The notes: a model not told the origin generated them from the letters alone. Shown: positions 19,984-39,507, counted from the stretch's first letter. The stretch is DNA of 64,000 nucleotides from Catalinimonas alkaloidigena (GCF_900100765.1 NZ_FNFO01000003.1:469348-533347); one strand, 5' to 3'. Program-made: numbers and translations.

Positions 19984-20775
19984 ATGCGTGTCATTTTCAA
20001 AATATTTTTCGTCCTGTTGGCCATCCGGCTTTTTACCTGCGAAGGCAAGGTGAAGCGCGACGTCGCCGAATTCGGGCGCGATTTTGTCCCCAAGCCCAAG
20101 GTTGAGGAAGTGAGCGGGGAAGATCTCTCCGAAGAAACACCCCCTCCGACCGACGCTTCGCCGCTGCTTGCCGCCAACTACTACTTCATCTTCGACGGAA
20201 GTGAGAACATGGAAGAACGGTGTGCCGGACAGGAGAAACTCCGCAGTGCCCAGCGGGCCGCGCAGGAACTTATTGAGCAGGTGCCGGACGATGCCAACAT
20301 GGGCCTTTTGGTATTTGACGACCATCGCGACCGAGGAGAAGCGTTTACCGAGCCGGTTGCTTTGGGTCCCGACAACCGGAAAAAGATGAACCGCGCCCTT
20401 CGCCGCATCGACGCGGACGGCAACTCGTCGCTACGCGAAGCCATCTACCAGGGCGTCAACCAACTGGAAGAGCAGTCGAAAAAGCAACAGGGCTACGGCG
20501 AGTATCACCTCGTCATCATCACCGACGGGCAGGACATTGGCTTGGAAGACGCCGCCCGCTACGCCGTAGAGAAAGGCATTGCCATCCATACGGTGGGGCT
20601 GTGCATCGACCGGGAGCATCCGTTACGAACGTACGCGCTCTCGTTCCAAAATGCCAACGAACGCACCGATTTCACCCTTACGCCGGAAGCGGAGCGGGTA
20701 GAGCCTGAAACGTTCGAACCAATTGATACCAAAACGCTGGTGGCGGAAACTCAAACGCCGGCCACCGCCGAATAA
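19984..20775 (+). CDS. von Willebrand factor type A (vWA) domain protein, probable lipoprotein
   Basis: 263 aa. The lipobox-like segment is LFTC. vWA/MIDAS elements are FIFDGSENM, LLVFDD, NSSLREAIYQG and LVIITDGQD. Confidence 0.8.
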   Translation: MRVIFKIFFVLLAIRLFTCEGKVKRDVAEFGRDFVPKPKVEEVSGEDLSEETPPPTDASPLLAANYYFIFDGSENMEERCAGQEKLRSAQRAAQELIEQVPDDANMGLLVFDDHRDRGEAFTEPVALGPDNRKKMNRALRRIDADGNSSLREAIYQGVNQLEEQSKKQQGYGEYHLVIITDGQDIGLEDAARYAVEKGIAIHTVGLCIDREHPLRTYALSFQNANERTDFTLTPEAERVEPETFEPIDTKTLVAETQTPATAE

Positions 20776-20794
20776 CACTAGTTTGCAGCAGATC

Positions 20795-22042
20795 ATGAAA
20801 AAGTGGTTAGGTCCTTTTGCGGTATTTATGCTCATCACGTCAGGCATGGGTGCCTGGTGGTACGGACGACGCATTCTGTTCGAGCAAGAGCAGATCGCCA
20901 CGTCGGACGCCGTCGGCCACATCGAGCACCTGCGCATCGCGGGCGACCATCAGCCGGGGTATTGGTTTCTCCACTCCCCCCAGATGAAAGCCCGGCAGGC
21001 GCGCAGCGGACAGGCCATCGACTTCACGACGAGCCACGGCGACTATGCCGCACAATTGCAAAGTCTGGTCGACGGAACACAGGATGCGCTGGTCATGCCG
21101 GTGGAATCGTATCTGAAGTACGGTAGCGGGTTCGACTACCCGGGCGTGATTGTCGCCAGTCTATACGGCCCGCGCACGGCCCAGCCGGACGCCCACCCGA
21201 CGGCCCAGCAGCAAACCAGCGACGCGCATGTAGAGGTAATTCAAACCAGCACGAATGCCATCGAAGTACCTACGCTGACGGTATTGGTCGTAAACCGGGA
21301 AACCGTTTCGCAGAAACCCGGGCAGGTTAAACTGCTTCTGAAAAATTATTTCCAGACCCTGGACTACTATACCGGCCATCGCGACGAGTTCGTGCAGGCC
21401 CTGGTGCAGGAAACGGAAATGACTCCGCAGGAAGTAGAAAAATTTCTGGCCCGGACCGACTGGTACGACCTGCGCGAAAATAGCTACGAGTTGTTCGGCG
21501 TGAGCCGCAACCCGGCGGAAGGGCAGCCTAATAAACTGGTCAGTACCCTGGTGCAACGTAATTCGAGCGTCGATCCGTACCGGCTGATCAACAGCAACTT
21601 CTTACGGGAACTGCTGAACAGCGAGGCCACCACCTTCACGGCCCTGACCGAAGAAGCGTGGGCGCAGCTGACCACCACGACGGTTCTCGACGCGGCTCCG
21701 GTGATTTTCCAGCGCAGCACAGACGAGCTAGACTACGAAGACGAAGTATTGATCGATCAGGTTGCCGAGCGCGTGAAACAGGAGTACCCGGGTTACCGGC
21801 TGATCGTACGCGGCCATACGGGACTAGGCGACGAAGCGGCCAACCTGATTTTGTCACAACGCCGTGCCGAGAAAGTGCGGGCGCAGTTGATCAGCCGTGG
21901 GCGGCTGGACGCCAATCAGTTGCACGCGGAAGGCGTAGGGGCCACACAACCGCCCACGCGCCAGGCCGACGAATCGGAGCGGGCGTACCGCCTGCGGATG
22001 CCGCGCGTAGAATTTATTCTGGCACAGGCCAATCCTCTCTAA
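20795..22042 (+). CDS. Membrane-anchored protein with periplasmic domain and C-terminal OmpA-like domain (architectural paralogue of the 18260-19957 protein)
   Basis: Real start is probably the ATG at 20795 (MKKWLGPFAVFMLITSGMGAWWYG, a TM helix), because the listed ORF overlaps the upstream vWA gene. The C-terminus is OmpA-C-like (YRLIVRGHTGLGDEAANLILSQRRAEKVRAQL...RVEFIL). Confidence 0.6.
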   Translation: MKKWLGPFAVFMLITSGMGAWWYGRRILFEQEQIATSDAVGHIEHLRIAGDHQPGYWFLHSPQMKARQARSGQAIDFTTSHGDYAAQLQSLVDGTQDALVMPVESYLKYGSGFDYPGVIVASLYGPRTAQPDAHPTAQQQTSDAHVEVIQTSTNAIEVPTLTVLVVNRETVSQKPGQVKLLLKNYFQTLDYYTGHRDEFVQALVQETEMTPQEVEKFLARTDWYDLRENSYELFGVSRNPAEGQPNKLVSTLVQRNSSVDPYRLINSNFLRELLNSEATTFTALTEEAWAQLTTTTVLDAAPVIFQRSTDELDYEDEVLIDQVAERVKQEYPGYRLIVRGHTGLGDEAANLILSQRRAEKVRAQLISRGRLDANQLHAEGVGATQPPTRQADESERAYRLRMPRVEFILAQANPL

Positions 22043-22045
22043 ACC

Positions 22046-22897
22046 ATGTCAAAACGAACTTCACTTTATAAACCAAAATCCGTTGACGAGGTCTTCAAAC
22101 CCGTCACGTACGCCGACCTCAGTCCGGGAGCGTTGCGCCGGGCCCGACGCCAGCATGCGTTTGGCCACTGGACATTCCGCTACTCCCTGGTGGCGGTAGC
22201 CTCCTCTTTAGTGGCGATGGGCTTGTTCGGCATGTCGGAAATCCTGTTCTTTCTGGCGGCTTCCTCCTCTACGCTGAGTGCAGCGTCGGTTTCGTGGAAT
22301 TACCTGGCGAATCCCGATGAGGTGGAAAGCCGCTACGTGGAGCGTATTCAGCGCCAGTTGGCACAACAGACGCAGGAACGTCGAACCCAATTGCGTGCTT
22401 ACCTGACCGAGTACAACGGACAGCGTGGCCTGGTGCAAATGGAGTCGTTACAAAAGCAGTTCGATGCACTGGTGGAAATGCTTCAGACCAAGTTCGAAAC
22501 CACGGAGCTGACGTACCAACGCTACTACGGCATTGCCCAGGAGGTTTTTCTGGCCTCGATCGATAACCTCTCGGAAGTAGCGCTTTCGTTGCAAAGCATT
22601 GACGGCATCGACGTATTTGAGATTCAGCGTCGCCTCAAAGCGCCCATCCTGATGCCGGGCGAGCGGGAGGCGCTGCAAAAGCGGCTGGCCCTATACGAAG
22701 CCGAAAAGCGGGACATCGAACAACGCTACCTGGAAAACGAACGGGCGCAAACGCAGATCGCCGAGACGACGGTCGCCATCTCGAACATCGACGTCAGCAA
22801 TAAAGAGGCACGCCTCACGATGGAAGAAGCCATGCGCGAGCTGGTCGAACTGACCAAGCGCGCTCACGAATACTCTACGCCCAAGGTCAGTGCTTAA
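22046..22897 (+). CDS. XpaC-like membrane/coiled-coil protein (TelA partner)
   Basis: 283 aa. Two N-terminal TM helices followed by a long coiled coil. It lies immediately upstream of TelA with a 4-bp gap from the preceding gene, the arrangement I recall for xpaC with a TelA-family gene (yaaN) in Bacillus. Confidence 0.4.
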   Translation: MSKRTSLYKPKSVDEVFKPVTYADLSPGALRRARRQHAFGHWTFRYSLVAVASSLVAMGLFGMSEILFFLAASSSTLSAASVSWNYLANPDEVESRYVERIQRQLAQQTQERRTQLRAYLTEYNGQRGLVQMESLQKQFDALVEMLQTKFETTELTYQRYYGIAQEVFLASIDNLSEVALSLQSIDGIDVFEIQRRLKAPILMPGEREALQKRLALYEAEKRDIEQRYLENERAQTQIAETTVAISNIDVSNKEARLTMEEAMRELVELTKRAHEYSTPKVSA

Positions 22898-22957
22898 CCG
22901 CCCGATCCCTGGCTACATTTCACAATTACTCACGACAAACCCTTATTTCTGAATACT

Positions 22958-24148
22958 ATGGCAACGCAACCCAATAAACCCGTCAAACCTGTGGAACCCG
23001 AATTTGAGGAACTGAATTTCGAGCCGGAGCGTCCCATTGACCCGGAGCTGGATAAAAAGGCAGATGAGTTTCTGACGCAGCTGCTGAGCGACGAAACGGC
23101 CAGCAACACCAAGCGCCGGGCTGTCGACGAGATGGGGACGCGCACGCAACAGGAAATTACGAACCTCAGCAAAATGCTGGAAGGGCCGATCAAAACCCTG
23201 GCCGAAACCGGCGACAACGGGGGACCGGTGGCCAAGTCGCTCATCGACCTGAAAGAACAGGTAGAAGACCTCGATCCGGCCAAGTTCGATTTTTCCAGTC
23301 CGTCGGGGTTTATGGCGAGTTTCGGCAAAATGCTACCGGGCAAAAAGAATCGCATGGGACGCTACTTTGCCAAGTATCAGTCGGCCGAGGCGGTCATCGA
23401 TCAAATCATTAAATCGCTGGAACTGGGCCGCGACCAACTGCGCCGCGACAACATCACCCTTTCGCACGACCGCGACCGGATGGTAACGGCGATGGATCGG
23501 CTGGAACGCACGATTCAGCTCGGTCAACTGCTCGACGACAAACTCCAGTATAAACTGGACCGCGACCTGGCCTCGGATGCCGATCAGCATCGCTTTGTGC
23601 AGGAAGAACTCCTATTCCCCCTGCGTCAGCGCATCATCGACCTGCAGCAAACGCTGAACATCAACCAACAGGGCATCCTGACCATCGAAGTCATCATCCG
23701 CAACAACCGCGAACTGATGCGCGGCGTAGGCCGGGCGCTGAACGTCACGGTGACAGCCCTGCAAACCGCGATTGCGACCGCGTTGGCACTGAACAATCAG
23801 GAAATTGTGATGAAAAAGATCAACGCCTTGAACGACACTACGTCGAAGTTGATCGCCCACAACGCCGAACGTCTGAAAACCCAGGGTGCTGCTATTCACA
23901 AGCAGGCCTCCGAATCGATGCTGAGCATGGAGCAATTGGAAAAAGCGTTTCAGGACATCCGGACCGCGCTGGAAGACATCTCCAAGTTCCGGCAGGAGGC
24001 GCTGCCCAAAATGGCGACGCAGATCAGCCGCATGGACGAACTCAACAAAGAAGCCGCCGACACGCTGCGCCGAATGGCCCGCGGCAACCAGGCCCAGACC
24101 GAGATGATCATCGACCTCGACGCCGATCAGTACGAAGTAGGGAAGTAG
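22958..24148 (+). CDS. telA: TelA/KlaA-family toxic anion resistance protein
   Basis: 396 aa, all helical, with the length and pattern of the TelA family. Confidence 0.75.
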   Translation: MATQPNKPVKPVEPEFEELNFEPERPIDPELDKKADEFLTQLLSDETASNTKRRAVDEMGTRTQQEITNLSKMLEGPIKTLAETGDNGGPVAKSLIDLKEQVEDLDPAKFDFSSPSGFMASFGKMLPGKKNRMGRYFAKYQSAEAVIDQIIKSLELGRDQLRRDNITLSHDRDRMVTAMDRLERTIQLGQLLDDKLQYKLDRDLASDADQHRFVQEELLFPLRQRIIDLQQTLNINQQGILTIEVIIRNNRELMRGVGRALNVTVTALQTAIATALALNNQEIVMKKINALNDTTSKLIAHNAERLKTQGAAIHKQASESMLSMEQLEKAFQDIRTALEDISKFRQEALPKMATQISRMDELNKEAADTLRRMARGNQAQTEMIIDLDADQYEVGK

Positions 24149-24170
24149 ATACGTCAAGTACATCTAAAAG

Positions 24171-24210
24171 AGGCCTATCCGGTAAGAACTGGATGGGCCT
24201 TTGTCGTTTG
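24171..24210. terminator. Putative bidirectional terminator between convergent operons
   Basis: AGGCCTATCC..GGATGGGCCT, a 10-bp stem with one G.U pair and a 10-nt loop, followed by TTTGTCGTTTG. Confidence 0.5.
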
Positions 24211-24225
24211 ATGCCAAACGAAGGA

Positions 24226-24870
24226 TTACGCCATATTTTCGCGAATCTCCTCCTCGGTCACCAGAGCGCGCCAAGCAGGATCGGATGGAAAGCCGCCCTC
24301 TGCACAATTATGGATGTCAATCGTTTCATCCTCCCCAGAAGGTTCAAATAAGTCTAACTGCTTTTCACGCACATACGCTTCGCGGGTAGCATACTCCTGG
24401 GCAAGCTGTTCATTCCATACGTCCGAACCACAGCTCAGGCATTTATGGCTCGTTACGGCGAGTAGCCCACACACGTCACAGCCCGCTAACGAAGCAAAGA
24501 ACTGCTTCACCCCTCCGTAATCGTAACCTGGATACCCGACTGGTACTTGCTGCACCAACGCATACCAGCCGCTATACTCATTCGGGATTTCCAGGTACAC
24601 GCTACCGTTTCTGATCAGCACCAATTTTTCCGGAGAAAAATGGATGTCCTCAAGCCTTCTCCACACCACATCATGCTCCACCGAACCGTCGTCCAGTTTT
24701 TCAACTCGAAAGCCATGAGCTGTGATGCTGATCTCACGCATCTCGCGAAGTCTCTCCCGAAACATCTGACTGATCTGTTTTTTGCTTGGAAGCAGGAGCC
24801 AGCGCCAAAAGCGTTTCATCATATGCGTGTTCCGGTTTAAGCGAAAAGAGTGGTAAAAATACAGGGACAC
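24226..24870 (-). CDS. Hypothetical protein with C4 zinc ribbon (CDVCG...CLSCG). Lower GC than its surroundings.
   Basis: 214 aa. The start is probably the internal MMKRFWRW near 24822. A 4-bp gap to the upstream gene suggests co-transcription with the giant ATPase. Confidence 0.45.
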   Translation of the reverse strand: MSLYFYHSFRLNRNTHMMKRFWRWLLLPSKKQISQMFRERLREMREISITAHGFRVEKLDDGSVEHDVVWRRLEDIHFSPEKLVLIRNGSVYLEIPNEYSGWYALVQQVPVGYPGYDYGGVKQFFASLAGCDVCGLLAVTSHKCLSCGSDVWNEQLAQEYATREAYVREKQLDLFEPSGEDETIDIHNCAEGGFPSDPAWRALVTEEEIRENMA

Positions 24871-24873
24871 ACG

Positions 24874-25434
24874 TTATCCCAGGTCTATGACTTGCTTGCT
24901 GGCCATGTAGTGAAATTCTCGCTCAAGCTCGTACTTCATCTTTTTCACACTCCGCCGCATCATCAGGTAAGGCATGCCGAACATCAACGACGCGTGAAAG
25001 AGAATGAAGGGTAGAAACACGAATGATCCCGGTCCATTTCCGTCATCCATAAATAGCATGGAGAAAATGAATACGGAATACATAATGAAGCCAATCACAT
25101 AGAAGGGAATCATCATTCTCTTGAATCCATCCACTTCGGTCTCAATCACTACGTACTCTCCGCTTTGTCGGAACGTGCCTTTTGCCAGGGCACTCATCCC
25201 TACCTCGAAAAGCCTTTTACGCCTTTTTATCTTAAATTCCGACCTGCCTACGTGTCCTTTGTACTCGTTTTTACTGGAGGACAAAACATCGAAGGCCCCG
25301 GAAAAGGCACTGGTATTGCCTTCGTCCACATGCTTCCTTAACCTGGCGACAAACTCCTTTTGAGAGATGGCGACTTTTGTCGAGAAAGAATCGACTAAGC
25401 CTAGCTTTTTCAAAAAGGGTGATATTGAATCCAT
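24874..25434 (-). CDS. Hypothetical small membrane protein (two C-terminal TM helices). Lower GC than its surroundings.
   Basis: Real start is the ATG at 25434 (MDSISPFLKKLGL...), 186 aa. The upstream part of the listed ORF is Arg/Pro-rich read-through. Hydrophobic helices are MMIPFYVIGFIMYSVFIFSMLF and SFVFLPFILFHASLMFGMPYLMM. Confidence 0.5.
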   Translation of the reverse strand: MDSISPFLKKLGLVDSFSTKVAISQKEFVARLRKHVDEGNTSAFSGAFDVLSSSKNEYKGHVGRSEFKIKRRKRLFEVGMSALAKGTFRQSGEYVVIETEVDGFKRMMIPFYVIGFIMYSVFIFSMLFMDDGNGPGSFVFLPFILFHASLMFGMPYLMMRRSVKKMKYELEREFHYMASKQVIDLG

Positions 25435-25517
25435 AACTGCTTTGTCCTGGAAGAAAGCCGTACCACTTCTACCTGAGCGCGAGAATAGAAGTGGTACAGC
25501 TAAATTTTTACCGGTTA

Positions 25518-28500
25518 CTAGTTGCCGTTGCGGCCGAGGGCTTCTCCGATGCGCTGGATGCCTTCGGCGAGGACTTCCATCTGGGCGACAACCTGGCTGA
25601 CGCCATTTCCCCCAAGGCCTTTCAGGCGGTTGTTCTTCACAAACTGGGTTTTGATGGCTTCCCAGCGTGCGTTCTCCTCGGAGGTGATCCAGCCGAGCAT
25701 TTCCTTCCACTTGAGCAGGTTCGCTTCGGCACCCTGCGTCAGGGTTTGCGCTTCCTGTTCATAGTGCGAACGCAGCAGGGTCTTCAGTTCGTCGTCGTTC
25801 ATCACGGGCACCACCTTTTCGGCCAATTTGTTCATGTCGCGGTACGAGCCCTGAAGCTTGAACGGCGGTTCGGTGCGGTACTCGTCGGCCTGCGCAGCGG
25901 AGTGGATGTATTCCTGGTTCACGCGCAGAAGCACGTCGCGCACCTGCACGAGTTTGCGCAGCACGTTGACGTATTCGTTGATTTCCTCGGGCGTATGATT
26001 CGCCTCGAACTCCAGTCCTTCTTTGCTGCCCGTTGCGGCAATGCGCAGGAGTGGGAACAGGTCGGCGGTACTTTTGGCGGCCAGCTTCTGAAGCGTCGGG
26101 TTGGCCATCAGGCTGTTTTCCAGGTAGCTCAACTCAAATGCCTCGTCCGAATCCCCGATGATGTCGCCCAGGTTGTAGATGTCGGCCCGGTTGGCCAGCA
26201 TGTCGGGAATCTGAAACTGGTCGCCGCTTTCCGTGTACGGGTTTCCGGCCATCACCACGGCCACCTTCCGCCCCCGCAGGTCGTAGGTCCGGCTGCGGCC
26301 CCTGTACACACCCTCGATTTTCCGTTGCGCGTCGCACAGGGAGATGAATTTTTGCAGGAACTCCGGATTCAGGTGCTGGATGTCGTCCAGGTAGAGCATC
26401 AGGTTATCGCCCATTTCGAGCGCGAGGTTTAGCTTCTCCAATTCCTCCCGTGCCGATGCATTGGGAGCGGTTCCCGGATCGAGCGAGACGACCTGATGCC
26501 CAATGGCCGGTCCGTTGATCTTCATGAACACCAGCCCTAACCGGCTGGCGATGTATTCCATCAGCGTGGTTTTCCCGTAGCCGGGAGGCGAAATCAATAG
26601 CAGCATGCCCTGGCGGTCGGTCCGTTTCTGGTCGCCGGCCGCGCCCAACTGCTTCGCGAAGTTGGTGCCGATCAGGGGCAGGTAGACTTTGTCGATCAGG
26701 CGGTTGCGGACAAACGAGGTCAGCACGCGGGGCCGGAAGGAATCAAGCCGCAGTTCGTGTCGGAAGTCTTCTGTCAGTTGCTTTTTCAGTGCCACGAACG
26801 CTTGGTACTGCGGCACGGTTTCCCGTTCGAAGGTGCGGAGCCGCTGCGAAAAATCGTGATACTGTAACGTATACGCGCCATTGTCGAGGACAGCGTGCGT
26901 GCCTTGCAATCCTGACAGCGCCGTTTCGAGCGAGGCTTCGATGACTTTCGCTTCGCCCGCCGGGTTGGCGAATAACTGCACGGCAACTTCGTCTACATAC
27001 CCCCGCTGCTCCCCTTTCCCGGTGTGGTCCAGAAAGGCCCGTAACCATTTCCGGATCAGTTTGAAGCGGGCGGCGGGTGACGCGGCCAGCGCCTCGACCG
27101 AAGTCTGATACGCGGCTTCGGCCTTCACCTGTTTCAGGTAAGCTGCGAAATCACGACGCAATTGGGCGGCCGCGCCTTCGGTCACGAAGGATTCGTCACG
27201 GGCAATTTCGTGCAACAGATACGCGCCGGCCTCTTCGGCCCAAGTCTCCGCAAACAACTGGTGCTGCTGCGCAAAGGCACGTAATTCGGTCTGCAATTCT
27301 TCAATCATCCCGTCGAACTCGTGCGTATCGGGAAAGACCTGTAGAATTACGCCGATGCCTTTCAGGCGGTGGTGCCAGACGGATTTTTCCTTTTCGGCCA
27401 TGAAGCCCTGCCAGTACAAGGCAGCCATGGCACGGGCGGACGAAGGGTAGCGCAACAAGTCGATGTGCTGGTCCAGTTGCCGCAGCGCCTGCAACAGCAG
27501 GAGCGCGTCCTGATCGTGCACGCCTTTGACGTAGCCTTCCTGCGGGTGGTTGGCGACGTACTGTTGCACCGCTTCTGCCAGCGTGTCGTCCGACAGCTGG
27601 GTCTGCTGAAACAGTTGCCAGGCCAGGTACTCGGCACGGTACACCCGCGCATTTTCCGACACCAGGGTCTGGTCCCACGCCTCGCGGGTTGCCAGAAAGG
27701 CCGGATCGGTGATGGGCTGGAAGAAGTTGGTGCCGGTCAGGTGAAACTGTAGCGTCCCGTCGCGCGGCACGAGCGTCAGGTCCAGCGGCTGCGTATTGAC
27801 GGAGAAGTGATGCTCGCCGAAGCGAATTGTATCTGCGCCGCCGACAAATAATTCCTGCCGGTCTTTCAACTGACGGGCGGCATCTTCGCGCACCGTTTTC
27901 AGGCGACTCAACACGTCATCGGCCTTGACCGAATCGCCCAGTTCCTGCAACTGCTGCGCAAACTGCCGCACCTTATCGACCATCAGGTCGGCGGCAAAAT
28001 AGCCGTTGATCTCCGCGATGGAGGCGAAGCTCGACACCCGGTTCTGAATGCCTTTCAGCACCCGCTCGGCCGATTGCCGCAGGGCCTCGGCCCGACGGTT
28101 GCGGGTTTCGATTAGCGCGACCTTCTTCGACTCGAACGTGTTGTAGAGTTCTTCGCGCTTCTCGGTAATCTTCTCAATAAAATCCTCGAATTCCACGAAG
28201 CGGCCTTCCAGTTCCTCCAGTTGAATCAGGAGTTTGGTGAGGTATTCGTCGCACCGCTCGGGCGTCTGGCTGGCGTCGAGGTAATTTGTGACGCTCTGGT
28301 CGATCAGCTTCAGTTGCGCCGCAAATTCGGCCCGTCCTTCCTGCCCACGCAGCTCTTTCCGCTTCCGCTTCAGCGCGGCCCGCAACTGATTCAAGTGGGC
28401 GTATAAGGTCGAAATGCGGTCGATGATCTGCGTGGTTTGTGTCGCGTCCTCGATTTTCAGGTTACTCACCACTTCGATCAGCAGATCCAGTTCATGAGCG

Positions 28501-30443
28501 GCAGTATCGACCTCCTGTTCCGTCTCTCTCACCTCTACCACTTTCCCGACGGCATCCGCCTTCTGCTGCAATTCTTCCAGCCGCTGCTGGTACGGGGCCA
28601 GTGAGTTTTCCTGCAACAGGAACTGCACCGCGTCGTGCGCCAGCTTGTCCTGCTGCTCGGCGGTTTTTCCTTCTTTCGTGGCGATGGCTTCCCCATCGGC
28701 GTACCGCAGTTCTTTCAGCGCAATCAGCTCACCCCGCACGGTGCGCAGCTCGGCCAGCCACTCCACGTACTGGCGAATGGAGTCCGCCTTTTTCCGGCGC
28801 ACCTTTCCGAACAGTTCTTCCGCTTTCTGGAAGACCCGGTGGGTTTCTTCGGCCGTGCTCTGGCGCAGCCGGGTTACTTTCTCGAACTCTTCGATGGCGG
28901 CTGCCGCCGACTGCTTGATCGCCTGGAGCGGTTCGTTCAACTGGTACGCCTCTTCCCGGCTCAGCCAATGGTAACTGTCCAGGAGGGTCGAGGCTTGCTT
29001 CGCCAGGTCGATGTACAGGTCGGCGTAGCGGTCATCGCGGTTCACCAGCGTGATTAGCTCGCGGCTTTCGGCCATGGCCCGCACCACGTCTTTGTTGCCA
29101 ATCTTGAACAGGTAGTGATCGCTCGTGGTCGACAGCGGCACGTCGGGTCCGACAAACGGCGTTTGCCAGATTTGCACGGCGTGGTGCCGCTTCGGAGCGT
29201 TATCGCCCGCCGTGTCGCGAAAGAGCAACAATTCACCACTTTCGAACAGCGAATAGCCGTGGCAACTCACCGGAATGTCGGCGCGCTGCTCAATCAGGTT
29301 GTAAAAGAGGAGCGTGTAATGGTTGGAATACGGGCTGTAGAATACGTAGAGGAAATCTTCCCCGTTCGGCGAGGCCAGGCGTTTCTCGAACCGCATGTGC
29401 GTGTCGTCGGTATCGAACAGCTTGTATTCGCCGTTTTGCAGGTAGAATCCGTTGGGAAACAGGATTCCCTGGTCGTCGGGCAGAAGGACACAGGCATCGG
29501 CCAGGGCGTCGATCCGTACCGCCTCGCGCAACTTCTCATTGTAGACGATGTAGCGGAAAGCCTTCTCCTGAAAAGGCTTGATTTTCAGGATGATTAAATT
29601 CCCGACCGGAGCGTAGTGAATTTCGGCATCGTCGAGGGTCTGATCGACTTGGTCGACCGGTTCGGCGTAGATCCCCTCGCCCGTATCGGTGTTGTCTTCT
29701 ACCTTGATCGTCAGGTCACCACCAACCGCCTCGACAAACACCCGATCTTCGATGGAAATGTGCGGGTGCATCCCCTTCCGGTGCATGTCGCGCGTGGCCC
29801 GTATCCACCGAAATTCGTGTTGGTTCGGGTAGACAAACTCGTGATCACTCCGGTTGTCCAGGTACTTGACTCCCTTTCCGTCCGGCTGGATGGCCCACTT
29901 GAACGTCTTGATGTCTTCCGGTTTCGGGCTGGTCTGGAACACCATGAACAGTTGCGGTCCGATCACCCCAAACTTCACGAAACGTGTGTCGCGGTAGTAC
30001 TTGTAAAGATTTTTGAAATCCTCCAGAAACCGCGCGTCCTGCACCATCGCCAGCGATTCTGCATGGAACTGGTGATCCTGGTAGCGATAGATGCTGAACA
30101 CATCCTGTAGGTGCGTCTCGGTTTTGAGGCCCAGGTGGACGTTGTAGCCGAACAGGAAACTGTCGCCGATCGGGACCATGTCCTGCGCTACGCAGTTGTG
30201 CTCGGTCGTGACGCGCTCGGTCGCCACCAGTTTGGTCTCCAGGCTCCCGAACACGTCTCTGCGCGCGCCGTTCAGCTGATCAAGGCGCGTCCGCAGGTCG
30301 TCAGCGTGTTGCTTCAAGCGATTGCGCAGGATCTCGTACGTGCCCTGTTCCAGTTGGGTCGGGGCTTCTTCGGTAGTATGTGAAATGGTCTCAGCCATGA
30401 CGTGGTTTCGTTGTGTAGTGGACATCCCCCGGCCTGCGGCCAC
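25518..30443 (-). CDS. Giant (about 1640 aa) multidomain protein: beta-rich N-terminal region, roughly 400-aa coiled coil, AAA+ ATPase domain near the C-terminus
   Basis: Walker A is LLLISPPGYGKTTLMEYIASRLG (about 26.56-26.61 kb), Walker B is LMLYLDDIQHL, and sensor 1 is VAVVMAGNP. A long heptad-like helical region separates the N-terminal region from the ATPase. The first 15 codons lie inside a palindrome, so the true start may be the Met at 30398 (MAETISHTTEE). Confidence 0.75.
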   Translation of the reverse strand: MAAGRGMSTTQRNHVMAETISHTTEEAPTQLEQGTYEILRNRLKQHADDLRTRLDQLNGARRDVFGSLETKLVATERVTTEHNCVAQDMVPIGDSFLFGYNVHLGLKTETHLQDVFSIYRYQDHQFHAESLAMVQDARFLEDFKNLYKYYRDTRFVKFGVIGPQLFMVFQTSPKPEDIKTFKWAIQPDGKGVKYLDNRSDHEFVYPNQHEFRWIRATRDMHRKGMHPHISIEDRVFVEAVGGDLTIKVEDNTDTGEGIYAEPVDQVDQTLDDAEIHYAPVGNLIILKIKPFQEKAFRYIVYNEKLREAVRIDALADACVLLPDDQGILFPNGFYLQNGEYKLFDTDDTHMRFEKRLASPNGEDFLYVFYSPYSNHYTLLFYNLIEQRADIPVSCHGYSLFESGELLLFRDTAGDNAPKRHHAVQIWQTPFVGPDVPLSTTSDHYLFKIGNKDVVRAMAESRELITLVNRDDRYADLYIDLAKQASTLLDSYHWLSREEAYQLNEPLQAIKQSAAAAIEEFEKVTRLRQSTAEETHRVFQKAEELFGKVRRKKADSIRQYVEWLAELRTVRGELIALKELRYADGEAIATKEGKTAEQQDKLAHDAVQFLLQENSLAPYQQRLEELQQKADAVGKVVEVRETEQEVDTAAHELDLLIEVVSNLKIEDATQTTQIIDRISTLYAHLNQLRAALKRKRKELRGQEGRAEFAAQLKLIDQSVTNYLDASQTPERCDEYLTKLLIQLEELEGRFVEFEDFIEKITEKREELYNTFESKKVALIETRNRRAEALRQSAERVLKGIQNRVSSFASIAEINGYFAADLMVDKVRQFAQQLQELGDSVKADDVLSRLKTVREDAARQLKDRQELFVGGADTIRFGEHHFSVNTQPLDLTLVPRDGTLQFHLTGTNFFQPITDPAFLATREAWDQTLVSENARVYRAEYLAWQLFQQTQLSDDTLAEAVQQYVANHPQEGYVKGVHDQDALLLLQALRQLDQHIDLLRYPSSARAMAALYWQGFMAEKEKSVWHHRLKGIGVILQVFPDTHEFDGMIEELQTELRAFAQQHQLFAETWAEEAGAYLLHEIARDESFVTEGAAAQLRRDFAAYLKQVKAEAAYQTSVEALAASPAARFKLIRKWLRAFLDHTGKGEQRGYVDEVAVQLFANPAGEAKVIEASLETALSGLQGTHAVLDNGAYTLQYHDFSQRLRTFERETVPQYQAFVALKKQLTEDFRHELRLDSFRPRVLTSFVRNRLIDKVYLPLIGTNFAKQLGAAGDQKRTDRQGMLLLISPPGYGKTTLMEYIASRLGLVFMKINGPAIGHQVVSLDPGTAPNASAREELEKLNLALEMGDNLMLYLDDIQHLNPEFLQKFISLCDAQRKIEGVYRGRSRTYDLRGRKVAVVMAGNPYTESGDQFQIPDMLANRADIYNLGDIIGDSDEAFELSYLENSLMANPTLQKLAAKSTADLFPLLRIAATGSKEGLEFEANHTPEEINEYVNVLRKLVQVRDVLLRVNQEYIHSAAQADEYRTEPPFKLQGSYRDMNKLAEKVVPVMNDDELKTLLRSHYEQEAQTLTQGAEANLLKWKEMLGWITSEENARWEAIKTQFVKNNRLKGLGGNGVSQVVAQMEVLAEGIQRIGEALGRNGN

Positions 30444-30480
30444 CCCCTTAGAAGGAGGTGGCCGCAGGCCGGGGGATGTC
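30421..30480. repeat. Perfect 24-bp inverted repeat (GACATCCCCCGGCCTGCGGCCACC / GGTGGCCGCAGGCCGGGGGATGTC) with a 12-nt spacer
   Basis: Read directly from the sequence. It generates mirror-image ORF starts (MAAGRGM...) on both strands. It lies 6 bp after the DUF559 stop and overlaps the nominal ATPase start. Confidence 0.85.
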
Positions 30481-30485
30481 CCAGA

Positions 30486-30854
30486 CTACGGTTGATTTCT
30501 CTCTATCCAATCAAGAATGGTGTCAATCACCAGTTTCATATCTCGCTTGGGCTCCCGATCGTCGAAACGTAAGAAGCGCACTCCTAGCCGCTCCAGTTGC
30601 TGCTGACGCTTGGCATCTACTCGCTCTCGTCCCTGATGACTACTTCCGCCAATTTCCAGAGCCAGTTGCAATTCGTGACAATAGAAGTCAACGATAAAAT
30701 GGTCGATAGGCACCTGTCGGTGAAATTCCCAGCCCAACTGCTTTCCTTTGATCTGCTGCCAGAGCAATACTTCTGAAAGCGTGCTGTGTTTCCGCAGAAA
30801 ACGCGCGAGTCGCTTTAAGTAGGGACGGTACGGAATGATCGAATTTCGAACCAT
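30486..30854 (-). CDS. DUF559 endonuclease-domain protein (Vsr-like fold)
   Basis: 122 aa with the hallmark DUF559 motifs (SEVLLWQQIKGKQLGWEFHRQ ... DFYCHELQLALEIGGSSH). Confidence 0.75.
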   Translation of the reverse strand: MVRNSIIPYRPYLKRLARFLRKHSTLSEVLLWQQIKGKQLGWEFHRQVPIDHFIVDFYCHELQLALEIGGSSHQGRERVDAKRQQQLERLGVRFLRFDDREPKRDMKLVIDTILDWIERNQP

Positions 30855-30911
30855 ACAAAAAACCGGCAGGCAGATGACCTACCTGCCGGTGAAGTTTACG
30901 AAGTCAGAATT

Positions 30912-33089
30912 CTAAAGCATCTTGTCCAGGCTCCGGGCCGGCGTATCGGAGAGGCCGTTCGATTTGGCGAGGGAGAGCAACTGTTGCAGCTGACTCCGGG
31001 TGCCGTCGTGGTCGGTCATGCCGATCATCTTGGTCAGTAGGGCTGCGACCGTCAGGTTTTTGATGTCGGCCGACGTGATGCCCATCCGTTTAACGAGGTC
31101 GCGGACATTGTCGACGATGTTATGCCCTTCGTGCCCGTTGCCGTTCAGAAGTGAGTTCTTCACCCCGTTCAGCACCTGGCTGTTGCCCAGCGCCGCGTCG
31201 ATCGATTTACCCGTCGCGATGGCGCTGGTAATCTTGTCGAAGAAGGCACCGTCGCCCCCCACGATGTCGATGTTGGCCGACTTCAGCGCTTCGGCTAGGA
31301 CTTTTGCCTGCGATTCGGCGAGGTTACGCTGCACGTCGATGTGGGCTAGTTGTACCTCTTTGTCCTTCGCCAGTTGCAGCTTGAACTCCTCATGCTCGCG
31401 CCCCACCCCGTCGAGGGCTTTCATGGCTTCGGCTTTGTCGCGGACGCCTTTGGCTTCGGCGGCGAATTTCTCGGCCATCACGCGGGCGGCGGCCAGGCCC
31501 TGCTTCTCTTCGGCCTGCGCTTTGGCTTCGATGACTTCGGCATCAGCCTTCCCTTTCTGCAGAGTGACTTCGGCAGCCACTTTCCCTATTTCCTGATCGG
31601 CTTTTGCCTGAGCACGGGCTTTGGCTTCGATGCCTTTGGCTTCGGCCAGGGCCGTGGCTTCCACGATACCGGCTTCGGCTTCCCCTTGCTTTTCGCGGGC
31701 GGCGGCCTTGGCTTCCATCACCTGGGCTTCGGCCAATCCGACGGCGGCGGCTTTGGAGGCTTCGGCATCGGCCAGGACTTTGATCGCTTCGGCTTTCTTC
31801 CCGGCGGTGGCCTGGTCGGCTTCCGCTTCGATGATCAGCTGCTGCGATTTGAACTCGGCCGCCTGCCGCTCGGCCTCTGCCGATTTGATGTGTTCTACCA
31901 ACGCCTCTTCGGCTCGCATTTCGGCTTCTTTGATGGCGACAGCTTTTTTCCGTTCGGCTTCGGCGAAGGCGCGGGTGTCTTTGATGCGCTCTTCTTCCAG
32001 CACCACCGACTTCTGCACTTCGACGCGCTCGCGAATGGTTTCCTGGATGTTTTTCTGTTCTTCTTCTACCGCTTTCTGCTTCGCGATGGCGGCCAGCGTT
32101 ACGATGCGCTCGCGTTCGGTGCGCTCCAGTTCCTGATCTTTCAGGACGCGCTCCTGCTCGACAGCCTCGGTGCGCTCTTTGTTTTTGCGAGCGACGACTA
32201 CTTGCCGTTCGCGGTTTTCTTCCGCCACCTGGATTTCCTCGTCCGACTGGATGCGGGCGCGCTCTGCTTTCAGGCGCTCTTCCTGCTGTACGCGAGCGGC
32301 TTCGGCCTCTTCGCGCGAACGAATGGTCGCCACTTCCCGCTTCTGTTTTTCTTCTTTCTCGATCTGCTGACGCTCCAGTTCCAGAATCGCTTCTTTCGCC
32401 TCTACGTCCTGCTGTTTGATCGTTTTCTGCTTATCGCGTTCGATCTTGTTGGCCAGCACCTTCTGCACGGCAGTCAGTTCAGTGATCTTTTTGATCCCTT
32501 CTGCATCCAGAATGTTGTGCTCGTTCATGAACTCCAACGGCGTCTGCTCCAGGTAATCGATAGCACAGTCGTCCAGCACGTACCCGTTCAGATCGGTTCC
32601 GATGTGTTGAATGATTCGCTCCCTGAACCCTTCGCGTTCGTTGTAGAGGTCGACAAAATCAAAGTGTTTCCCAACCGTTTTCAGCGCTTCGGAAAACTTG
32701 GCATCGAAGAGATTTTCCAGCGCTTCCGGATCGGAACCGCGTTCGCAACCGATGGATTGGGCTACGTGGAGGACATCTTCTTTGGTCGGATTTACTCGTA
32801 CGAAGAAGGTTACCTGGATGTCGGCCCGCATGTTGTCTTTACAGATCAGGCCATCTTTTCCCTGACGAGAAATCATCACCGTTTTCAGGGAGATGTCCAT
32901 CGTTTCCAGACGGTGCAATACAGGAACTACCAACATCCCTCCAAAAGAGACGTTTGTGCCCCCAACACCCGTGCGTACCAATGCGCGGCCTTGCTCGGCC
33001 TTTTGGTACATTTTGGCGAGGGTAATCAGGATCATCAATAAGACGAATACACTGATACCCACTACCATGATCGTTACGTTTTCTAACAT
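30912..33089 (-). CDS. Flotillin-family SPFH protein (YqiK/FloT-like, long Bacteroidetes form)
   Basis: 725 aa. N-terminal TM, SPFH/band-7 domain, then a very long E/A/K-rich coiled coil. The antisense ORFs 31350-33041 and 31621-32136 are low-complexity artefacts. Confidence 0.85.
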   Translation of the reverse strand: MLENVTIMVVGISVFVLLMILITLAKMYQKAEQGRALVRTGVGGTNVSFGGMLVVPVLHRLETMDISLKTVMISRQGKDGLICKDNMRADIQVTFFVRVNPTKEDVLHVAQSIGCERGSDPEALENLFDAKFSEALKTVGKHFDFVDLYNEREGFRERIIQHIGTDLNGYVLDDCAIDYLEQTPLEFMNEHNILDAEGIKKITELTAVQKVLANKIERDKQKTIKQQDVEAKEAILELERQQIEKEEKQKREVATIRSREEAEAARVQQEERLKAERARIQSDEEIQVAEENRERQVVVARKNKERTEAVEQERVLKDQELERTERERIVTLAAIAKQKAVEEEQKNIQETIRERVEVQKSVVLEEERIKDTRAFAEAERKKAVAIKEAEMRAEEALVEHIKSAEAERQAAEFKSQQLIIEAEADQATAGKKAEAIKVLADAEASKAAAVGLAEAQVMEAKAAAREKQGEAEAGIVEATALAEAKGIEAKARAQAKADQEIGKVAAEVTLQKGKADAEVIEAKAQAEEKQGLAAARVMAEKFAAEAKGVRDKAEAMKALDGVGREHEEFKLQLAKDKEVQLAHIDVQRNLAESQAKVLAEALKSANIDIVGGDGAFFDKITSAIATGKSIDAALGNSQVLNGVKNSLLNGNGHEGHNIVDNVRDLVKRMGITSADIKNLTVAALLTKMIGMTDHDGTRSQLQQLLSLAKSNGLSDTPARSLDKML

Positions 33090-33094
33090 GAGCT

Positions 33095-33730
33095 TCAGAG
33101 TTTATAAGGATCAATGAGATAATACTTTTTATCGGGCTGATACTCAATGACCAGCGCCGTTTCTCCCTTAGGCACTACTTTACCTTCGGGCGTACGAACA
33201 AAGAGTTTGATAGGAGAGCTTTTTCCTTCTACCACGGCTTGGCCACCGTGCTGATGATCGATGGTTCCCAACGTGCGGCAGATTTTCCCGATGACGGTGG
33301 TATCTTCTTCCTCGTCCATGTGCTCGAACACCTTGACAAAAGGCCAGGTAAGAAACTTGGCAATGAACAGGCTAGCGATCAGCACAGGCAGCAGAAAGAT
33401 CAGCGAAACGGCAAACGACGTGTTGCTTACGTAATGGTTCGCCAGAACCGAACCAGCCCATAAGGGAAGCGCCAGGAAGGTGAGAAACACCATCAACGGC
33501 ACTTTCCCCAGGTTGAAGAAGGCCAGAACATGGTTCAGCCACATCAGCGAACTGCCGCCGTCTACATCTACATCGGCGTCGGCATCCACGTCCACATCGA
33601 CGTCAATGTCGATCGAATCCAGGTCCACCATTCCAATCAGCGTGACCAGCCAGTATCCTATGACAAACAGGAGCAGAAAGGTCGGGATGATGTTGACCGA
33701 CGAAAAGGAGGCGTCAACTAATTCTTTCAT
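33095..33730 (-). CDS. NfeD/YqiJ-like inner-membrane protein (flotillin partner) with an acidic D-x repeat linker
   Basis: Real start is the ATG at 33730 (MKELVDASFSS...). Multi-TM N-terminal half, a DSIDIDVDVDVDADADVDVD linker, and an OB-fold-like C-terminus (GGQAVVEGKSSPIKLFVRTPEG). It abuts the flotillin gene with a 5-bp gap. Confidence 0.65.
   Translation of the reverse strand: MKELVDASFSSVNIIPTFLLLFVIGYWLVTLIGMVDLDSIDIDVDVDVDADADVDVDGGSSLMWLNHVLAFFNLGKVPLMVFLTFLALPLWAGSVLANHYVSNTSFAVSLIFLLPVLIASLFIAKFLTWPFVKVFEHMDEEEDTTVIGKICRTLGTIDHQHGGQAVVEGKSSPIKLFVRTPEGKVVPKGETALVIEYQPDKKYYLIDPYKL
33561..33628. repeat. Short tandem GTCGAC/ATC-type hexamer-like repeats encoding (D-V/I/A)n
   Basis: A direct-repeat tract inside the NfeD-like CDS. 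Confidence 0.55.
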
Positions 33731-33859: not shown

Positions 33860-34588
33860 TTATTCTTTCGCGTCAGCAGCATTGGACGGCCCCAGGCCCA
33901 TCTTTGCTTTCAGTGCAGCCAAGTCGGCCGAGGCTTGCACGTCGGTGGCGTCAAGCGCCCGGTCGATCTCTTCGTCGAGGCTGCGGCTTTCGTTGGCAAT
34001 CTGCCCGTACGATTCGGCCAGCGCCTCCGATTGCGCCACTTTCTCTTTCATCCGCTCCAGCATGGAAGCGGTGTCGGACGAGTCGATCTGGGCCAGTTGC
34101 TTGTTCAGTCGCTGCGAAGCGGCGCTCACGTTGACGCGGGCTTTCAAACTTTTTAGTTCGTTTTCCCACTTGCTGATGTCGGCCTTCAGGCGTTTGATGT
34201 TGCCTTCCATCTGCTCGACGTGGCGGTCGAACTGCTCTTTTTCAGTCGTGGTACGTTTTACGTGCGCTTCGTTCTGAGCTTTTTTGGCCAGCGCTTCGGT
34301 GGCAAGGCGGTCGGCTTCTGCCGAATCCATGTGGCCCTGTTGTGCACGTTGCAGCAACTGCATGGCTTTCTGCTCGTACTCTTCGGCCTTGGTCTGATAG
34401 TCTTTCATATCATTCTGCGCCCGAATGGCCATGGCTTTGATTTCGGCTAGCCCGTGCAGGCTTTTGTCCAACTCGGCCTTCATATCACGGATGCCTTGCT
34501 CGGTCATCTTGATAGGATTTTCCAGCCGGTCGATGGCCGCATTGGTTTCGGCTTCTCCTATTTTGAAGAGGCGCTTGAAGATGCTCAT
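33860..34588 (-). CDS. pspA: PspA/IM30-family protein (phage-shock protein A)
   Basis: Real start is the ATG at 34588. The N-terminus MSIFKRLFKIGEAETNAAIDRLENP matches the PspA consensus (MGIFSRF..IVNANINALLDKAEDP). About 242 aa, all coiled coil. Confidence 0.8.
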   Translation of the reverse strand: MSIFKRLFKIGEAETNAAIDRLENPIKMTEQGIRDMKAELDKSLHGLAEIKAMAIRAQNDMKDYQTKAEEYEQKAMQLLQRAQQGHMDSAEADRLATEALAKKAQNEAHVKRTTTEKEQFDRHVEQMEGNIKRLKADISKWENELKSLKARVNVSAASQRLNKQLAQIDSSDTASMLERMKEKVAQSEALAESYGQIANESRSLDEEIDRALDATDVQASADLAALKAKMGLGPSNAADAKE

Positions 34589-34831: not shown

Positions 34832-35392
34832 TTAGTTGTAAGCAACTCGTTGGGGCTGGCCTACTTTCTCGTACTTTTTGAAAATGTCGGTCACCGCCTC
34901 GTTGATGGTTCCTTCGGGGTCTTGCTGCAACGTGGCCGCATCGGTAGCGGCCCACCCCTGCCAGACCAGTTGTTTGTCTGTGGCATTGATCAGATCAACG
35001 ATGATCATGGCTTCGTCGTAATCCTGCGCGTACGCATTTTGGTACGTAGGCCAGTACCAATAGCCGTAGTTGTTCATGTAGCGCGTGTCGGTCTTCTGGT
35101 TGACCGCGATCTGGTAATTCACCAGCAAGTCCGGGTCAGACGACACCATCTCGTATCCCAGGTTGTTCATCTCCCGCTCAATGGCCTGCCGAATCCGCTT
35201 CAAATTCAGCGAATTGTCGATGGTCGGATTGTCCGACGTCTGCTTCATGCCGGCCGAGTCGACCCAGGCGTACGTGCTGAACGAGTCGAACTGTGCCTCC
35301 TTGTCGTAGTCGGAATGAACCGTCAGTTGAGGACTGCAACTAAACAGAAGGAGTAGGGCAAACGCCCCGATATAATAGGTATAGCGTTTCAT
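34832..35392 (-). CDS. DUF4136-family lipoprotein
   Basis: 186 aa with a lipobox (LLFSCSP) and DUF4136-like composition (YAWVDS...). Confidence 0.55.
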   Translation of the reverse strand: MKRYTYYIGAFALLLLFSCSPQLTVHSDYDKEAQFDSFSTYAWVDSAGMKQTSDNPTIDNSLNLKRIRQAIEREMNNLGYEMVSSDPDLLVNYQIAVNQKTDTRYMNNYGYWYWPTYQNAYAQDYDEAMIIVDLINATDKQLVWQGWAATDAATLQQDPEGTINEAVTDIFKKYEKVGQPQRVAYN

Positions 35393-38132: not shown

Positions 38133-38410
38133 AAAAAAGGATCAGAACCGCTACGCTCGGTGATATGTGTATATGGTGATTTCGAGGGGCTAAAATAGAT
38201 ATATGAGATGGGCAGGACTCGCTAAAACACTTTATATCAATACTGAAGAAAGTTTTGACCCGAAATGATATGAATCATTGCACATATAGCGCGTGTCCAG
38301 GCCCTCTGCCTAACGGTTGCCCCTCGGTTTAGTAGCATAAAGTAGGAATTCCCGGGTTGCGGTCCGAAAACCGCCCCCGGGGGGAATGGAAAAGCCACGT
38401 AACTATTGCT

Positions 38411-38418
38411 TAAATTTG
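38411..38418 (+). promoter_or_regulatory. Bacteroidetes -7 promoter element (TAAATTTG) for prfA
   Basis: TAnnTTTG located 19 nt upstream of the ATG at 38437. Confidence 0.35.
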
Positions 38419-38436
38419 CCCCCTATTTAGACAATT

Positions 38437-39507
38437 ATGATTGACAAGTTAGAGGCTATACGTCAGCGTTTTGAAGAAGTGGGGCACCTGATTGTTCAGC
38501 CCGATGTGGTGAGTGACATGAAACGGTACTCAAAATTGAGCAAAGAGTATAAGGACTTAGAGAAGATTGTCGAAAAGTACCGCCCTTACCGCCTGACGTT
38601 AGATAATATCGAAAATGCGAAGCAATTGCTGACTACCGAAAAGGACCCCGAGTTCCGGGAGATGGCCAAGGAGGAGTTGGAGACGTTGCAGGAAACCCGC
38701 GAGGCGCAGGAGGAGGAGCTGAAAACCATGCTCATTCCGAAAGACCCGAACGACAGCCGCAACGTCATCATGGAGATCCGTGGTGGAGCCGGGGGAGATG
38801 AAGCCGCCATTTTTGCCGGCGACTTGTTCCGGATGTACCAGCGCTTTGCTGAAGAGCGCAACTGGCGCATGGAGATTCTGGATTACACCGAAGGGACGTC
38901 GGGAGGCTATAAAGAAATCATTGCCAACGTTTCGGGCGACGATGTCTACGGCATGTTGAAATGGGAGTCGGGCGTTCACCGGGTGCAGCGGGTTCCCGCT
39001 ACCGAAACGCAGGGACGCGTCCACACTTCGGCGGCCAGCGTGGCGGTATTACCCGAAGTTGAAGAGGTGGACGTGGAGCTCAACATGAACGACATCCGTA
39101 AAGACACGTTCTGCTCGTCCGGTCCTGGTGGGCAGTCGGTCAATACTACCTATTCGGCCATTCGCCTGACCCACATCCCCACGGGAATCGTGGTGCAGTG
39201 CCAGGACGAAAAGTCGCAGATCAAAAATTTCGAGAAAGCCCTGAAGGTCCTCCGCTCGCGGTTGTACGATATCGAATTGGCAAAGCAGAACGAAGAATTG
39301 GGTGCGCAACGCAAAGCCATGGTGGGCAGCGGCGACCGCTCCGACAAGATCAGAACCTACAACTACCCCCAAAGCCGTGTGACGGATCACCGCATTGGCC
39401 ACACGGTCTATAACCTCCCGGCCGTCATGGATGGTGACATTGGCGACTTTATCGAGCAATTGCGCCTGGCCGACAACGCAGAGAAGCTAAAAGAAGGGCA
39501 AGCGTGA
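38437..39507 (+). CDS. prfA: Peptide chain release factor 1
   Basis: 356 aa with the PAT tripeptide ([15 protein letters not shown]), GGQ (SGPGGQSVN), and the RF1 C-terminal region. Confidence 0.9.

Follow-up and report, generated by a model that had tools for sequence, protein, structure and literature searches.

A giant DUF3686 AAA+ ATPase of Catalinimonas alkaloidigena belongs to a PspA-flotillin operon and adjoins two small, probably lineage-specific genes

Overview of the locus

Three neighboring minus-strand genes (positions 24226-30443) were analyzed in a 64,000-nt stretch of the genome of Catalinimonas alkaloidigena (Bacteroidota; NZ_FNFO01000003.1:469348-533347), referred to below as the window. 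They encode a giant AAA+ ATPase, a small membrane protein of 186 amino acids (aa), here named TM186, and a 198-aa protein, ZnR198. The interval most probably holds the native ATPase of an envelope-stress operon of the PspA/YqiJ(NfeD)-like/flotillin-like/AAA+ type, placed beside two lineage-specific small genes that are not core partners of this operon. In an initial annotation, made from the DNA alone, the same three genes had been taken for a horizontally acquired operon of an ATPase with two effector-like partners, resembling abortive-infection systems. The open reading frames (ORFs), their coordinates and gene structures were as described there, and so were two protein features: the "small 2-TM protein" has a hydrophobic helical hairpin at its C-terminus (TM, transmembrane), and the "Zn-ribbon protein" carries a CxxC-x9-CxxC motif, all four cysteines of which are invariant across its family.

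The two small proteins are identical (100%) to the C. alkaloidigena hypothetical proteins SAMN05421823_103413 (186 aa) and SAMN05421823_103412 (198 aa), while the large one corresponds to the entry "ATPase family associated with various cellular activities" of the same species. The ATPase ORF opens with GTG; the annotated ATG at position 30398 gives a protein of 1626 aa; the length is stated here as 1,626-1,641 aa. The coordinates of all features are listed in Table 1.

The ATPase and its conserved operon

Pfam models recognized in the ATPase (i) DUF3686 (residues 49-492, E=1.5e-188), (ii) DUF7902 (residues 614-697, E=5.5e-29) and (iii) an AAA/AAA_5/AAA_22 module around residues 1270-1410. The Walker A (GYGKT), Walker B (YLDDIQ, with DD, not DE) and sensor-1 (AGNP) motifs and the arginine of ANRAD are at least 90% conserved among 47 homologues, and the motif set of an active AAA+ ATPase is, judging by these signatures, intact. 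With more than 5,336 homologues at E<=1e-50, this is a very large family, most members of which are annotated as "DNA repair ATPase", an annotation which stands without evidence. No solved structure was related to the ATPase beyond the P-loop region, and the literature searched on DUF3686, PF12458, DUF7902 and experiments with such ATPases yielded nothing beyond comparative and review papers.

The ATPase is the native AAA+ component of an already described and widespread PspA-flotillin membrane-stress operon. An operon composed of genes for PspA, a Band-7/flotillin protein, a YqiJ/YuaF protein and a novel AAA+ ATPase was reported in a comparative genomic study (Ravi et al., mSystems 2024, PMC11237479), and the window contains, in the order seen in the 34 relatives, genes encoding PspA/IM30, a YqiJ-like protein, a flotillin-like protein (TM segment, SPFH domain and coiled coil) and the DUF3686/AAA+ ATPase. 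The comparison set consisted of 32 loci from species-representative genomes of Bacteroidota, Verrucomicrobiota and Planctomycetota (ATPase identity 48-63%), together with two closest relatives. The order YqiJ-flotillin-ATPase is present in most of the 32 loci, and a PspA gene in 9 of them; abbreviated operons lacking PspA are known to be widely distributed (PMC11237479). Both closest relatives (L045 and L046; ATPase identities 61 and 59%) keep the operon order, which in one of them reads CesT_Tir_1 - PspA - YqiJ_N - Band_7 - 702 aa - ATPase. A CesT/Tir gene was not found in the window by tblastn with the CesT_Tir_1 protein of L046, and a DUF4136 lipoprotein gene stands before pspA instead. Since operon versions without CesT/Tir have been described, this gene is not obligatory (PMC11237479).

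The assignment of the upstream genes rests on profile matches and on position. The PspA protein matches Pfam PspA_IM30 (PF04012; E=1e-39, 136.9 bits vs. a cut-off of 33.9) and is 58-64% identical to its positional counterparts in 9 related loci. The match of the YqiJ-like protein to Pfam YqiJ_N is weak (E=0.0083, 16.7 bits, under the cut-off of 23); it has a homologue in L046 (31% identity, E=7e-23) that bears a PF21001 YqiJ_N match, and in most related loci the YqiJ-like gene is conserved 5' of the flotillin-like one. The flotillin-like protein (725 aa), in which an N-terminal hydrophobic segment and a long E/A/K/R-rich region can be read from the sequence, gave no Pfam match at E<=0.01 in full length, and the Pfam flotillin C-terminal models were not matched; residues 1-221 alone match Band_7 (E=3.7e-12, 47.1 bits vs. 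a cut-off of 23.6), and the long charged coiled coil apparently masks this match in the full-length scan. The protein is 42-65% identical to the product of the gene immediately upstream of the ATPase gene in 28 related loci.

The window differs from the published operon at two further points. A DUF559 gene (Pfam DUF559, E=7e-26) and a strong terminator-like hairpin with a G+C-rich stem of 12-13 bp followed by UUUUUU (-23.6 kcal/mol, z -4.7) intervene between the genes for the flotillin-like protein and the ATPase, and two small genes, TM186 and ZnR198, are added 3' of the ATPase gene. A DUF559 gene occurs at the flotillin/ATPase junction in only 1 of 27 related loci and is not part of the conserved operon.

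Association of the small genes with the ATPase

The ATPase, TM186 and ZnR198, as far as comparison of loci can tell, are not a conserved unit. Profile hidden Markov models (HMMs) of TM186 and ZnR198 gave no match within +/-10 kb of the 34 related ATPase loci, and neither family occurs at any of the 33 other ATPase loci for which downstream sequence is available. In the reverse comparison, the ZnR198 family was absent from the vicinity of 36 TM186 loci, and nothing ties this family to the ATPase or to TM186 outside this genome (four ZnR198 contexts, 34 ATPase loci and 36 TM186 loci); among the loci examined, the two small families co-occur in C. alkaloidigena only. The small genes are thus missing beside all 34 related ATPases, including that of a Catalinimonas sp. 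metagenome-assembled genome (MAG; L028), in which synteny was followed only to the ATPase gene, the region downstream resembling nothing in the window. The initial annotation had proposed to check the presence of the three-gene block in relatives; the small genes are absent from them at this position, and the ATPase is widespread. Neither of the findings named there as refuting, codon statistics like those of core genes and universal conservation at this locus, was obtained for the two small genes.

The organization of the locus is in agreement with these data. A stem-loop begins 17 nt past the ATPase stop codon, i.e., between the ATPase and TM186 genes. It is formed by a 16-nt inverted repeat (94% complementary) with a 14-nt loop; its 18-bp stem has a folding energy of -28.2 kcal/mol (z -3.84), and none of 200 shuffled sequences was as stable. 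The spacer between TM186 and ZnR198 contains no significant folded structure, and the intergenic region between ZnR198 and the convergent telA gene contains two hairpins (-22.3 kcal/mol, z -3.26), with UCUUUUAG after the second stem. The idea of a three-gene operon with two effector-like partners was therefore abandoned: the ATPase goes with the upstream PspA, YqiJ-like and flotillin-like genes, the small families occur in separate and variable contexts, and a stem-loop lies in between.

Base composition and codon usage

The average GC content of the window is 0.569 (0.476 to 0.641 in 1-kb windows), i.e., 57% and not the roughly 60% assumed earlier, and the GC content at the third codon position (GC3) of its 47 ORFs is 0.691 on average (standard deviation 0.055). 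The two small genes are AT-rich on this background, as originally noted: TM186 has a GC content of 0.453 (GC3 0.583; first and second codon positions, GC1 0.444 and GC2 0.332) and ZnR198 one of 0.513 (GC3 0.563). Their GC3 values are the two lowest among the 47 ORFs, and the 1,209-bp block of both genes falls in the lowest 0.6% of windows of the same length by GC content. Codon usage was evaluated by a synonymous-codon likelihood conditioned on each protein sequence (500 simulations per gene), and TM186 (z -8.6) and ZnR198 (z -5.8) were the two most atypical ORFs, followed by the DUF559 gene (z -5.5). Other short ORFs of the window have z values of -5.0 to -5.4 and GC3 of 0.60-0.61; the deviation of the small genes is genuine, yet not unique in kind.

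The ATPase gene ranks with the most codon-typical genes of the window (GC3 0.766, z +5.6). Its 3' part, which had been described as AT-rich, is not so, the GC3 of the last three 600-nt slices being 0.795, 0.800 and 0.762. Nor is lysine enrichment distinctive of the three genes: lysine content is 8.6% in TM186, 4.0% in ZnR198 and 5.1% in the ATPase, compared with 9.9% in PspA and 9.0% in the flotillin-like protein. The composition thus distinguishes the two small genes from their neighbors and leaves the ATPase native. Of the proposed horizontal acquisition, only the part concerning the small genes is retained, in the form "lineage-specific, possibly acquired", on the grounds of composition and of absence from the equivalent position in 34 loci.

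AT-richness on a par with the two-gene block recurs in one other stretch of the window only (1.2-kb windows, GC <= 0.482), 37329-38885, which covers the region between the divergent ORFs 36204-38132 (minus) and 38437-39507 (plus).

The TM186 and ZnR198 families

TM186 has 26 homologues (40-58% identity, the closest ones 54-58%), apparently all from Bacteroidota, with 19 invariant positions, and is therefore considered a real gene under constraint. The AlphaFold2 model (predicted local distance difference test score, pLDDT, 86.8) places an alpha/beta domain in residues 1-105 and a helical hairpin in residues 108-127 and 137-184; the protein may be described as an N-terminal helix-grip/KA1-like domain on a C-terminal TM hairpin. 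The neighbors of the family members differ among Lutibacter, Lewinella, a Fulvivirgaceae genome, two Logan contigs and 36 metagenomic loci, and about 38 contexts of the family show no recurrent low-copy neighbor. Genes that do recur, encoding a predicted serine hydrolase (beta-lactamase-like by motif) and MacB/FtsX proteins, were considered as partners and rejected, these being abundant paralogous families whose recurrence was judged to be due to chance. The 183-aa proteins encoded 3' of the ATPase gene in four other loci (L013, L014, L020 and L037) were likewise rejected as TM186 homologues: they are without a TM segment, have no HMM match and are part of the 7TM-spermidine-synthase-like block described below. 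No member of the TM186 family was detected among 2.9 M viral contigs.

ZnR198 has 165 relatives (cluster representatives; 12 at E<=1e-30) in an exhaustive HMMER search, the closest of them being 40% identical. A word-indexed protein search had returned only the protein itself, and its provisional status of an orphan was overturned by the HMMER result; orphan calls from word-indexed searches alone appear unsafe at identities of 40% or less. In the family alignment four cysteines are invariant and the C-terminal tail is conserved; some members have TM helices at the N-terminus, and homologues have sub-threshold matches to bPH_3, FERM_C and YcxB. The protein may be described as a PH-like domain with a four-cysteine zinc ribbon and the conserved tail. 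The four contexts seen for this family, the alignment of which is too diverse for a wider locus scan, are all different. In the region 148-8588 of L038, the closest homologue (P0029) is the last in a series of small unannotated genes on one strand, and a gene encoding an HD domain and a PycTM (Pycsar-effector-type TM) domain lies about 7 kb upstream on the same contig; no link between them was established.

Searches with TM186 and ZnR198 against Pfam, NCBIfam and PADLOC models gave no match above threshold. The fold similarities to known domains, i.e., of TM186 to helix-grip (Bet v 1/START/SRPBCC) and KA1 domains, and of ZnR198 to bacterial PH (bPH/YcxB) domains combined with a zinc ribbon, with which it shares the four invariant cysteines, are generic (3-18% sequence identity). 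The domain combinations of both proteins match no named family in the libraries searched. Because of the TM hairpin and the PH-like fold, the two proteins are probably membrane-associated or membrane-proximal.

Alternative explanations

Several observations weigh against the reading of an operon ATPase beside two small genes that are not its partners. The small genes lie on the strand of the ATPase gene with short gaps (83 and 51 nt), and the U tract of the intervening hairpin is weak, so that read-through may join them in one transcript. For the ATPase, the biochemical role is wholly inferred, and codon z values near -5 also occur in other short ORFs, so that a horizontal origin of the small genes is not proven. 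In addition, on the metagenomic contig L055 (ERZ1740052 NODE-10635; 2,009 bp, GC 26%) a TM186 homologue starts 8 bp past the stop codon of a DUF3686 ATPase (linked region 1-1143), followed by an unrelated ORF. The identity to the window proteins is 51% over 195 aa for the ATPase C-terminus and 47% for the TM186 homologue; one extra co-location with the ATPase among about 37 other contexts is unlikely to have arisen by chance (we estimate ~1e-4 per locus and a few times 1e-3 overall). The L055 copy is nearer to copies without ATPase linkage (63-65% identity) than to that of the window. The linkage either has two origins or is ancient and has for the most part disappeared. Such a pairing in two unrelated organisms would fit a facultative accessory of the ATPase/PspA-flotillin machine, in which TM186, with or without ZnR198, serves some lineages as an adaptor anchored in the membrane, possibly sensing lipids, by which the ATPase is recruited or regulated, and the same may be said of the strand and spacing of the genes, of predicted folds typical of membrane or lipid modules (including the N-terminal TM helices of some ZnR198 homologues) and of the envelope-related character of the whole neighborhood. 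We nevertheless consider this role unlikely: the 33 other ATPase loci carry neither family, about 36 other TM186 contexts are without ATPase, PspA and flotillin genes, ZnR198 accompanies neither protein elsewhere, the stem-loop between the ATPase and TM186 genes is strong, and the fold similarities are generic. Slightly more doubtful still is the extended form of this proposal, according to which the TM186 family, with its helix-grip/KA1-like domain in the cytoplasm, would be a hitherto unrecognized, facultative membrane adaptor or lipid sensor of the DUF3686 ATPase that at least two lineages of Bacteroidota recruited, each on its own, to the 3' end of the operon, with ZnR198 added as a third membrane-proximal component in Catalinimonas.

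A horizontally acquired three-gene abortive-infection or defense system formed by the ATPase, the 2-TM protein and the Zn-ribbon protein is highly improbable and has largely been refuted by comparison of genomes. The compact same-strand layout, the atypical composition of the small genes, the DUF559 nuclease-fold gene just upstream and the likeness to ATPase/TM-effector systems, by analogy, would speak for it. The trio was found at no other examined locus, the ATPase is native in composition, extremely widespread and syntenic with PspA and flotillin genes, and its neighbors are envelope-stress genes. PADLOC searches yielded no match for TM186 and ZnR198 and, for the ATPase, only an LmuB coiled-coil match (E=3e-5) and a mad8 P-loop match (E=2e-3), both judged to be noise. 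Neither tRNA genes nor Rfam matches were found in the window, there is no recombinase (or integrase) among its ORFs, flanking repeats around 23800-25800 are at chance level only, and the TM186 family is missing from the viral contigs. The trio lacks the testable defining features of a defense system, namely a match to a defense family and conserved co-occurrence; the resemblance to a sensor ATPase with a membrane effector was not borne out, and the locus is outside any defense island. A separate question is the origin of the small genes, which could be old residents whose low GC3 and odd codons result from short length, low expression, relaxed selection and, in TM186, a composition rich in Phe, Ile, Met and Lys. 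The comparable values of other short ORFs, the location of part of the low GC of TM186 in codon positions 1 and 2, the lack of mobile-element signatures and the modest identity of the closest homologues of both proteins, with which no recent donor is visible, agree with this possibility, which we regard as conceivable and not the favored one: TM186 is the most deviant ORF even when its amino acid sequence is conditioned on, the genes are missing at the same position in the congeneric MAG and all other relatives, and both families are patchy and occur in variable contexts.

Proposed function and comparison with known systems

Under the preferred reading of a native operon ATPase, the protein would act on scaffolds of PspA and/or flotillin when the membrane is damaged, assembling, remodeling or dismantling them at the inner face of the cytoplasmic membrane at the expense of ATP. 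Hydrolysis of ATP by the C-terminal AAA+ ring might be coupled to binding through the DUF3686/coiled-coil part, which would serve as a substrate- or scaffold-binding module, and the action would be analogous in function to, and not homologous with, that of Vps4 on ESCRT-III. This mechanism is drawn from existing knowledge of ESCRT-III/PspA polymers, SPFH cages and AAA+ remodelers, and a corresponding proposal has been made by Ravi et al. (2024, PMC11237479). TM186 and ZnR198 would be independent singletons filling the convergent gap between the ATPase operon and the telA operon; they are best read as lineage-specific additions, weakly expressed and either recently acquired or fast-evolving.

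As in the ESCRT-III/Vps4 systems of archaea and eukaryotes, a protein of the ESCRT-III superfamily (PspA) is encoded together with an AAA+ ATPase, whose motifs, around the P-loop only, are similar to those of the Cdc48/VCP/Vps4-type "classical" clade; ATP-driven polymer remodeling is the analogy that has been put forward (PMC11237479). The window ATPase is no Vps4 homologue; it is without an MIT domain, about 1,640 aa long and equipped with DUF3686/DUF7902 N-terminal regions. According to a 2025 review, the roles of the Band-7 partners of PspA are undetermined and a Vps4-like ATPase appears to be absent in bacteria (PMC7619361). In two PspA-linked loci with pairs of the SPFH/NfeD type, pspA-ydjGHI of Bacillus subtilis and yqiJK of Escherichia coli, an SPFH/flotillin-family protein and a small membrane partner are likewise encoded or act with PspA (PMC9239133, PMC7619361); unlike the window operon, both are without a giant AAA+ ATPase.

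The generic layout of abortive-infection systems is an ATPase with a transmembrane effector. The succession of a large P-loop NTPase gene and a gene for a small 2-TM protein on one strand may recall this layout by analogy, from which the window differs in the lack of similarity at the level of PADLOC models, in partners that are not conserved and in the envelope-stress nature of the conserved partners of the ATPase.

Flanking genes and borders of the ATPase gene

Table 1. Features of the analyzed region of the window
Feature	Position	Strand	Remarks
DUF4136 lipoprotein gene	34832-35392	minus	precedes the PspA gene
PspA/IM30 (ESCRT-III superfamily) gene	33860-34588	minus	first conserved operon gene; start at 34588 per gene call and tblastn alignment
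YqiJ/NfeD-like membrane protein gene	33095-33730	minus	
Flotillin-like gene	30912-33089	minus	725 aa; N-terminal TM, SPFH/Band 7, long E/A/K-rich coiled coil, C-terminal domain
Strong intrinsic-terminator-like hairpin	30862-30890	minus	3' of the flotillin-like gene
DUF559 (Vsr-like endonuclease fold) small gene	30486-30854	minus	between flotillin-like and ATPase genes
Giant AAA+ ATPase gene	25518-30443	minus	DUF3686, DUF7902, coiled coils, C-terminal AAA+ module
Stem-loop, terminator-like, weak U tract	25456-25501	minus	17 nt past the ATPase stop codon
TM186 small membrane protein gene	24874-25434	minus	186 aa
ZnR198 gene	24226-24822	minus	198 aa; ORF 24226-24870, ATG at 24822
Convergent ZnR198/TelA intergenic region	24149-24225	not assigned	two terminator-like hairpins
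VWA/OmpA-domain/unknown 283-aa/TelA operon	19984-24148	plus	converges on ZnR198

Two envelope-stress-type gene sets abut in the window, the plus-strand VWA/OmpA/283-aa/TelA operon and the PspA-flotillin-ATPase operon. No homologues of TelA, VWA or OmpA proteins are encoded within 10 kb of the ATPase gene in 32 related loci.

In different phyla, small genes of selfish or nuclease type have repeatedly landed between the genes for the flotillin-like protein and the ATPase; the gap at this junction is 301 bp or less in 15 of 27 loci. The inserts encode (i) DUF559 proteins (the window and Aureivirga), (ii) PIN proteins (two Verrucomicrobiae), (iii) PDDEXK_3 (Akkermansiaceae), (iv) IS200-like Y1 transposases/RAYT-like proteins (two Verrucomicrobiota contigs and Wenyingzhuangia) and (v) YbjQ with DUF2007, and there is also (vi) a 3.7-kb ABC-transporter insert. 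The junction intervals are 30444-30911 in the window, 7804-10001 in L007, 9162-10001 in L010, 2543-3132 in L016, 9138-10001 in L018, 9215-10001 in L020, 8667-10001 in L031, 3592-4470 in L032, 8902-10001 in L034 and 6259-10001 in L037.

The gene content 3' of the ATPase gene also varies among related loci. In four loci of Bacteroidota a conserved same-strand block follows it (L013, 6277-10497; L014, 14890-18980; L020, 14816-18796; L037, 15110-19236), composed of ORFs of 183, about 255, about 290 and about 515 aa, and of an additional ORF of about 100 aa in 2 of the 4 loci. By sequence resemblance, the products would be a soluble protein, a lipoprotein, a protein with several TM segments, a fusion of the 7TM-spermidine-synthase type and a protein like AdoMet decarboxylase. 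The block resembles a second PspA-linked module, which was reported separately (PMC11237479), and, if so read, would join two PspA-associated modules described as distinct units in that study.

Significance

The locus is a further example of an operon type that has been described computationally, and it should not go forward as a candidate defense system. New here is the delineation of two small protein families of Bacteroidota that have no Pfam model, for which confident structure models were obtained; nothing indicates that the two families form a system. Small, compositionally foreign genes have landed repeatedly at the borders of the ATPase gene. If anything plays the role of Vps4 toward the bacterial ESCRT-III protein PspA, the giant ATPase is one candidate for it, as already proposed (PMC11237479).

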